64,000 nt of DNA from Escherichia coli. Lineage in GTDB: Bacteria; Pseudomonadota; Gammaproteobacteria; Enterobacterales; Enterobacteriaceae. Both the position numbers and the translations under genes were made by a program. Of the stretch, positions 61,830-61,856 are shown piece by piece (the stretch's first letter is position 1; each line of letters begins with the position of its first letter). The notes under the pieces were generated by a model. The model did no database searches, had not been told where the DNA came from, and was given only the letters and a program-made list of their open reading frames with translations. The DNA lies in NCBI RefSeq assembly GCF_013122565.1, contig NZ_CP053258.1; one strand, 5' to 3'.

Positions 61830-61856
61830 TCATCGGCATTTGGCGGTAATTACTTA
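61830..61856 (-). promoter_or_regulatory. Putative sigma-28 (FliA) promoter of trg
   Basis: Minus strand TAAGTAAT-N11-GCCGATGA against FliA consensus TAAAGTTT-N11-GCCGATAA (-10 matches 7/8); ~40 nt upstream of the trg ATG. Spacing counted by hand. Confidence 0.5.

Follow-up and report, generated by a model that had tools for sequence, protein, structure and literature searches.

The trg promoter of an Escherichia coli contig is the known FliA (sigma-28) promoter, with a candidate CRP site in the aer register

The window, the whole 64,000-nucleotide stretch of Escherichia coli contig NZ_CP053258.1 analysed here, carries the chemoreceptor gene trg on its minus strand (Table 1). The downstream ORF is identical to K-12 Trg at 539 of 546 residues (99%). 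NCBIfam returned no Trg-specific model above its cut-off, so the identity of the gene rests on this K-12 comparison and on the RefSeq annotation. An 801-nt stretch around the promoter has a match in 5,416 of 5,426 complete E. coli genomes, at 90–99.8% identity; all of these matches adjoin trg and hokB, and the gene is annotated trg throughout. An unusually divergent Trg sensor domain, whose best contig matches are 86–87% identical, was considered and rejected, given the 99% identity to K-12 Trg; the matches stand at 86–87% because they come from other Escherichia species.

A type I toxin-antitoxin module, hokB/mokB/sokB, occupies positions 62034–62335 and is divergent from trg, with hokB and mokB on the plus strand. 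A full-length Rfam match of 92.5 bits places the small RNA RydC at 62745–62808 (+), between ydcA and cybB as in K-12. The gap gene (gapC) is expected to start near 63538 (+) and to run off the window end (about 63538–64000), as judged by coordinate transfer from locus L002. At the gapC position, an intact type I glyceraldehyde-3-phosphate dehydrogenase is annotated in the closest relative, NZ_OZ197100.1, and K-12 gapC is listed in two parts, gapC_1 and gapC_2 (Cho et al., 2014, Table S6, PMC3923258).

Table 1. Coordinates of the trg promoter, its gene and the neighbouring toxin-antitoxin module in the window.
Feature	Position	Strand	Basis or remark
-35 element TAAGTAAT	61849..61856	-	Read directly; identical to K-12 and to the FliA ChIP-seq trg motif
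Spacer TACCGCCAAAT, 11 nt	61838..61848	-	Canonical sigma-28 length; 2 differences from K-12
-10 element GCCGATGA, GC extended -10 plus core	61830..61837	-	Read directly
Putative transcription start A	61823	-	7 nt past the -10 octamer; K-12 TSS transferred by alignment
Candidate CRP site AAATGTGACGCAAAGAGGTTTT	61863..61884	-	Upstream half-site perfect, downstream half-site poor; same as K-12
trg CDS, 546 aa, gene served by the promoter	60150..61790	-	ORF list; K-12 Trg identity; RefSeq annotation
Rfam 'sok' match	62034-62185	+	
hokB, 49-aa ORF	62180-62329	+	
mokB	62122-62289	+	
sokB	about 62132-62076	-	On the trg strand, ~220 nt upstream of the trg promoter
sokB terminator	62116-62085	-	Strong hairpin followed by T

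The promoter stretch reads gtcgTAAGTAATtaccgccaaatGCCGATGActttatatcagg on the minus strand, and 40 nt separate the end of the -10 octamer from the trg ATG (61790) on the same strand. The first-pass annotation had placed here, at 61830–61856, a sigma-28-type motif with correct spacing and a match to the flagellar consensus. The strings and coordinates read exactly as it gave them, and the spacing between the octamers is exactly 11 nt (61848–61838). The consensus match holds for the -10 element, where GCCGATGA agrees with GCCGATAA at 7 of 8 positions and has both the GC extended -10 and the CGA core; it was generous for the -35 element, where TAAGTAAT agrees with TAAAGTTT at 4 of 8. A -35 agreement of 4/8 or lower is found in 25 of 52 in-vivo FliA sites. 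Over its full length the site has 5 mismatches to TAAAGTTT-N11-GCCGATAA, and a search with this consensus allowing up to 3 mismatches misses it, the sole match in the window being an unrelated one at 44826. Judged against the consensus, the trg -35 and -10 elements are both suboptimal.

The candidate CRP 22-mer upstream of these elements has a perfect TGTGA half-site and a very poor downstream half, with 13 of its 22 positions matching the consensus by our own count. Its proximal pentamer is separated from the -35 octamer by 9 nt, the same distance as at K-12 aer (read from NC_000913.3), and its centre lies at -49.5 by aer numbering or at -50.5 by the K-12 trg TSS. By sequence, the locus has the aer/trg-type arrangement, a sigma-28 promoter with a candidate CRP site in the same register as at aer. 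Neither the poor -35 consensus match nor a co-activating upstream CRP site had been mentioned in the first-pass annotation.

The promoter is an already known one, that of the K-12 ribose/galactose chemoreceptor gene trg, which is read by FliA (sigma-28) and helped by CRP. ChIP-seq in K-12 found the FliA motif TAAGTAATTACCGTCAAGTGCCGATGAC under a trg peak with a FAT of 23 (Fitzgerald et al., 2014, PMC4183435, Table 2), and in the same work normalised trg RNA fell 27-fold, from 108 in motile MG1655 to 4 in a fliA deletion (PMC4183435). A trg100::lacZ fusion is sigma-28-dependent and CRP-activated, and shows no activity without FliA even in cells that have CRP; gel-shift experiments showed CRP binding to the trg100 fragment, and the spacing of the CRP site and the promoter elements at trg equals that at aer (Hollands et al., 2010, Fig. 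7A, PMC2859248). By microarray, trg is likewise a member of the sigma-F regulon (Zhao et al., 2007, PMC1935009). The proposal that trg belongs to the late flagellar/chemotaxis regulon is therefore borne out by K-12 ChIP-seq, fliA-deletion RNA, the trg::lacZ fusion and the sigma-F microarray. Structural work on sigma-28 assigned the GC pair to an extended -10 and found that melting flips the A of CGA, which accounts for the reading of GCCGATAA. A GCGCT-type change kills the aer promoter.

The K-12 trg TSS was mapped at NC_000913.2:1490461 (+) with 8 reads (Cho et al., 2014, Table S6, PMC3923258), and its sigma assignment by 'binding + motif' was S and F (Cho et al., 2014, PMC3923258). The coordinate offset was taken from sokB, whose TSS in Table S6 (1490143) lies 1976 below the sokB start annotated in NC_000913.3 (1492119). 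With this offset fixed, the K-12 trg TSS is position 938 of the K-12 locus (L001), the A in GCCGATGActttctAtc, 7 nt downstream of GCCGATGA. A start at this distance is consistent with the -10 element, so the interpretation of the motif as the trg promoter stands on this point as well. Transferred from K-12, where read support is low, the equivalent start in the window would be the A at 61823, giving a 33-nt 5' UTR. For comparison, numbering in the sigma-28 open complex of P. aeruginosa puts the -10 octamer at -15 to -8.

At promoter position -2 (61825, minus strand), the window differs from K-12 and from all other Escherichia alleles examined, with an A instead of their C. None of the 5,426 complete E. 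coli genomes contains the exact 46-nt promoter of the window; the best matches have a single mismatch, at the A at 61825, and the common E. coli trg promoter allele is the K-12-like one. Among other transcription data sets, the only trg entry in the supplements of Adams et al., 2021 (PMC7815308) is antisense inside the gene: an 'antisense' RNA end in their file 2 at NC_000913 1493371 (-), which would correspond to about window position 60889 (+) if the coordinate refers to NC_000913.3. The ROSE in-vitro transcription paper contains no sigma-28 data, and in a Salmonella FliA preprint trg appears only within a strain genotype.

We scored the window with a position weight matrix (PWM) built from the 52 FliA ChIP-seq motifs of Fitzgerald et al., 2014 (PMC4183435, Table 2), with trg held out to leave 51 sites. 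The trg site reaches 15.1 bits (the median of real sites is 16.1) and ranks second in the window, or first when the matrix uses strong sites only. Random 64-kb sequences from a first-order Markov model are expected to hold about 0.5 matches of that score, and 43% of simulations held at least one. The sequence match alone is weak evidence and has no window-wide significance. A PWM scan, suggested as a check in the first-pass annotation, thus gave a score typical of real sites and fell short of significance over the window; with about 0.5 chance matches per 64 kb, we gave up the claim of significance from sequence alone and turned to position and conservation. Chance would supply about 0.0015 such matches on the sense strand across the 390-nt intergenic region, and of the 11 GCCGAT[AG]A octamers in the window only the trg one has TAA in the -35 register. 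Once position is considered, the match at trg becomes significant.

Two other FliA-type sites in the window deserve comment. The match GAAAGATCATCTCGATGTTGCCGTTACC at 48242–48215 (-) scores as high as the trg site (15.2 bits). It lies on the sense strand inside a 667-aa ORF (47264–49267, minus strand) and has a defective -10, GCCGTTAC; the K-12 FliA ChIP-seq list has no entry between trg and ydcU, and so none at this position. The matrix has probably produced a false positive here. At 41347–41374 (+), the window carries an exact copy, GCTGGGAATAAACCATATTGCCGATAAA, of the weak intragenic K-12 ydcU site detected by FliA ChIP-seq with a FAT of 3 (Fitzgerald et al.). The window therefore holds a second published FliA site, one without known effect on gene expression.

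To follow the promoter beyond E. coli, we took one genome per species and used the Trg sensor half as query, which yielded 80 orthologous loci with 87–56% protein identity, from Escherichia, Citrobacter, Enterobacter, Lelliottia, Leclercia, Kluyvera, Kosakonia, Phytobacter, Trabulsiella, Pluralibacter, Mangrovibacter, Buttiauxella and other genera. Within 300 nt upstream of the gene, the best sense-strand match to the trg-held-out matrix reaches at least 12 bits in 77 of the 80 loci (median 15.6); at the same threshold the antisense strand gave 0/80 and coding sequence of equal length 1/80. In alignments anchored on the -10, GCCGAT is kept in 79–80 of the 80 promoters and the -35 TAA also in 79–80, the remaining -35 bases being A-rich and variable. 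Octamer position 7 carries the non-consensus G in 74/80 orthologues versus only 3/52 E. coli FliA sites. Conservation is strongest in the -10, with a mean information of 1.83 bits, followed by the -35 with 1.32 bits, and the TGTGA is conserved as well, while the spacer, at 0.41 bits, is not. The distance from TGTGA to the start of the -35 is 26 nt in 64 loci and 25 nt in 8, the latter being Escherichia sequences (72/80 in total). Within the alleles of E. coli and its sister species that we examined, the octamers are invariant except for T/C at -35 position 5.

Individual loci add some detail. Comparison of loci L008–L083 with L004–L007 and the window shows a further conserved block, gcgcTTTT, just 5' of the -35. 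In Enterobacter mori (L037) the promoter is ~250 nt from trg, and in Trabulsiella odontotermitis strain 01 (L052) the site was not found.

Across ~70 species and more than 15 genera, then, the G of GCCGATGA, the degenerate -35 and a lone TGTGA at fixed distance persist while the surrounding bases drift. The dual logic described experimentally for trg is that of the K-12 case only. From the pattern across genera we lean, by a small measure, towards the view that the combination of sigma-28 and CRP is ancestral to Enterobacteriaceae and that selection has maintained an imperfect promoter, with the CRP half-site shifted 1 bp closer in Escherichia. The conserved imperfections may themselves create CRP dependence.

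Could the motif be a chance resemblance, with trg transcribed from elsewhere? The frequency of such PWM matches in random 64-kb sequence, the equally scoring match inside the ORF at 48242–48215, which is not a reported FliA site, and the 4/8 agreement of the -35 would all fit such a view. It is contradicted by the expected 0.0015 matches at the trg position, by conservation of the octamers in 77/80 orthologues with controls near zero, and by the K-12 data, in which FliA occupies the site by ChIP-seq, expression depends on fliA and the TSS fits; chance is effectively refuted, and we regard it as next to impossible. Read-through into trg from the same-strand sokB promoter has the location of sokB in its favour, upstream and on the trg strand. 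The strong sokB terminator, the separate trg TSS mapped 33 nt before the ATG, the conservation pattern and the fliA dependence, which read-through leaves unexplained, make this reading exceedingly improbable too.

A different concern is that the trg start might be used mainly by the sigma-70 or sigma-38 holoenzyme, the FliA motif playing a minor part. ChIP signal for sigma-70 (D) and sigma-38 (S), together with an S motif, was reported at the trg TSS (Cho et al., 2014, PMC3923258); the FliA ChIP-chip data of that study have been criticised as noisy by Fitzgerald et al. (PMC4183435). Against a main role for these factors, a generic sigma-70 scan of 61500–62500 found no promoter-like hexamer pair, loss of FliA takes trg RNA from 108 down to 4, trg::lacZ is dead without FliA despite CRP, and the conserved bases are the sigma-28-specific ones. 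We consider it very unlikely that sigma-70 or sigma-38 is the main reader of this start.

Taken together, the case rests on position, conservation and published experiments. The sigma-28 motif match is unconvincing alone, since the window has an equal PWM match at a place not known as a FliA site. The element upstream of trg is almost certainly a class-3 (late) flagellar/chemotaxis promoter, read by FliA from TAAGTAAT and GCCGATGA, with a start near 61823 and cAMP-CRP as a second input. E-sigma-28 would bind TAAGTAAT as the -35 and GCCGATGA as the -10, 11 nt apart, with GC serving as the extended -10 and the A of CGA flipped, and transcription from about A 61823 would leave 33 nt of leader on the mRNA ahead of the trg ATG. 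As a FliA-read promoter, it would fire only once FliA is freed from FlgM, late in flagellar assembly, so that trg would be made only after the flagellar cascade releases the sigma factor. The suboptimal elements and a CRP site placed as at aer point to the second input: cAMP-CRP, bound ~50 bp upstream of the start, would raise activity, probably via polymerase recruitment. The ribose/galactose receptor would then be expressed best in motile cells without glucose.

We infer that this strain behaves like K-12, whose promoter is nearly identical, in FliA occupancy and dependence, in CRP binding and activation, and in the TSS. It would keep the standard wiring, in which a chemoreceptor is coupled to the flagellar cascade and to catabolite control, and for the strain itself this has little import beyond correct annotation. 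The small addition to the K-12 literature is the cross-genus conservation of the non-consensus -10 G and of the CRP half-site, with its 1-bp register difference.

Among known promoters, K-12 trg is the closest: in alignment with MG1655, the -35, the -10, the CRP 22-mer, the spacings and the distance to the ATG are all identical in the window. Four single-base differences fall at non-recognition positions, namely 61857 (5' of the -35), 61844 and 61840 (spacer) and 61825 (-2). A 9-bp indel lies between 61949 and 61948 (-), ~90 nt upstream of the -35, where K-12 has an extra GGTTAGCCA; this is a tandem duplication of adjacent GTTTAGCCA-like sequence and is absent from the window and from its closest relative.

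The promoter of aer resembles that of trg in its suboptimal sigma-28 elements, its 11-nt spacer, the position of CRP at -49.5 (aer), the 9-nt gap and the MCP-type receptor gene downstream. It serves another gene and has other elements (TAAAGATA and GCCGACAT), its CRP site is nearer the consensus (17/22 versus 13/22 at trg, by our own count), and its start, determined by primer extension, lies 6 nt past the octamer rather than 7 nt as at trg. The class-3 promoters of tar, tsr, motA and fliC share with trg the sigma factor, the two-block architecture, the 11-nt spacer and the regulon. The comparison with tar and tsr that the first-pass annotation recommended thus confirms the common architecture and spacer and also exposes a difference in the -35, which in tar, tsr, motA and fliC agrees with the consensus at 7–8 of 8 positions versus 4 of 8 at trg. 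These four promoters have no direct CRP activation, whereas trg, with its weak -35, needs or uses CRP.
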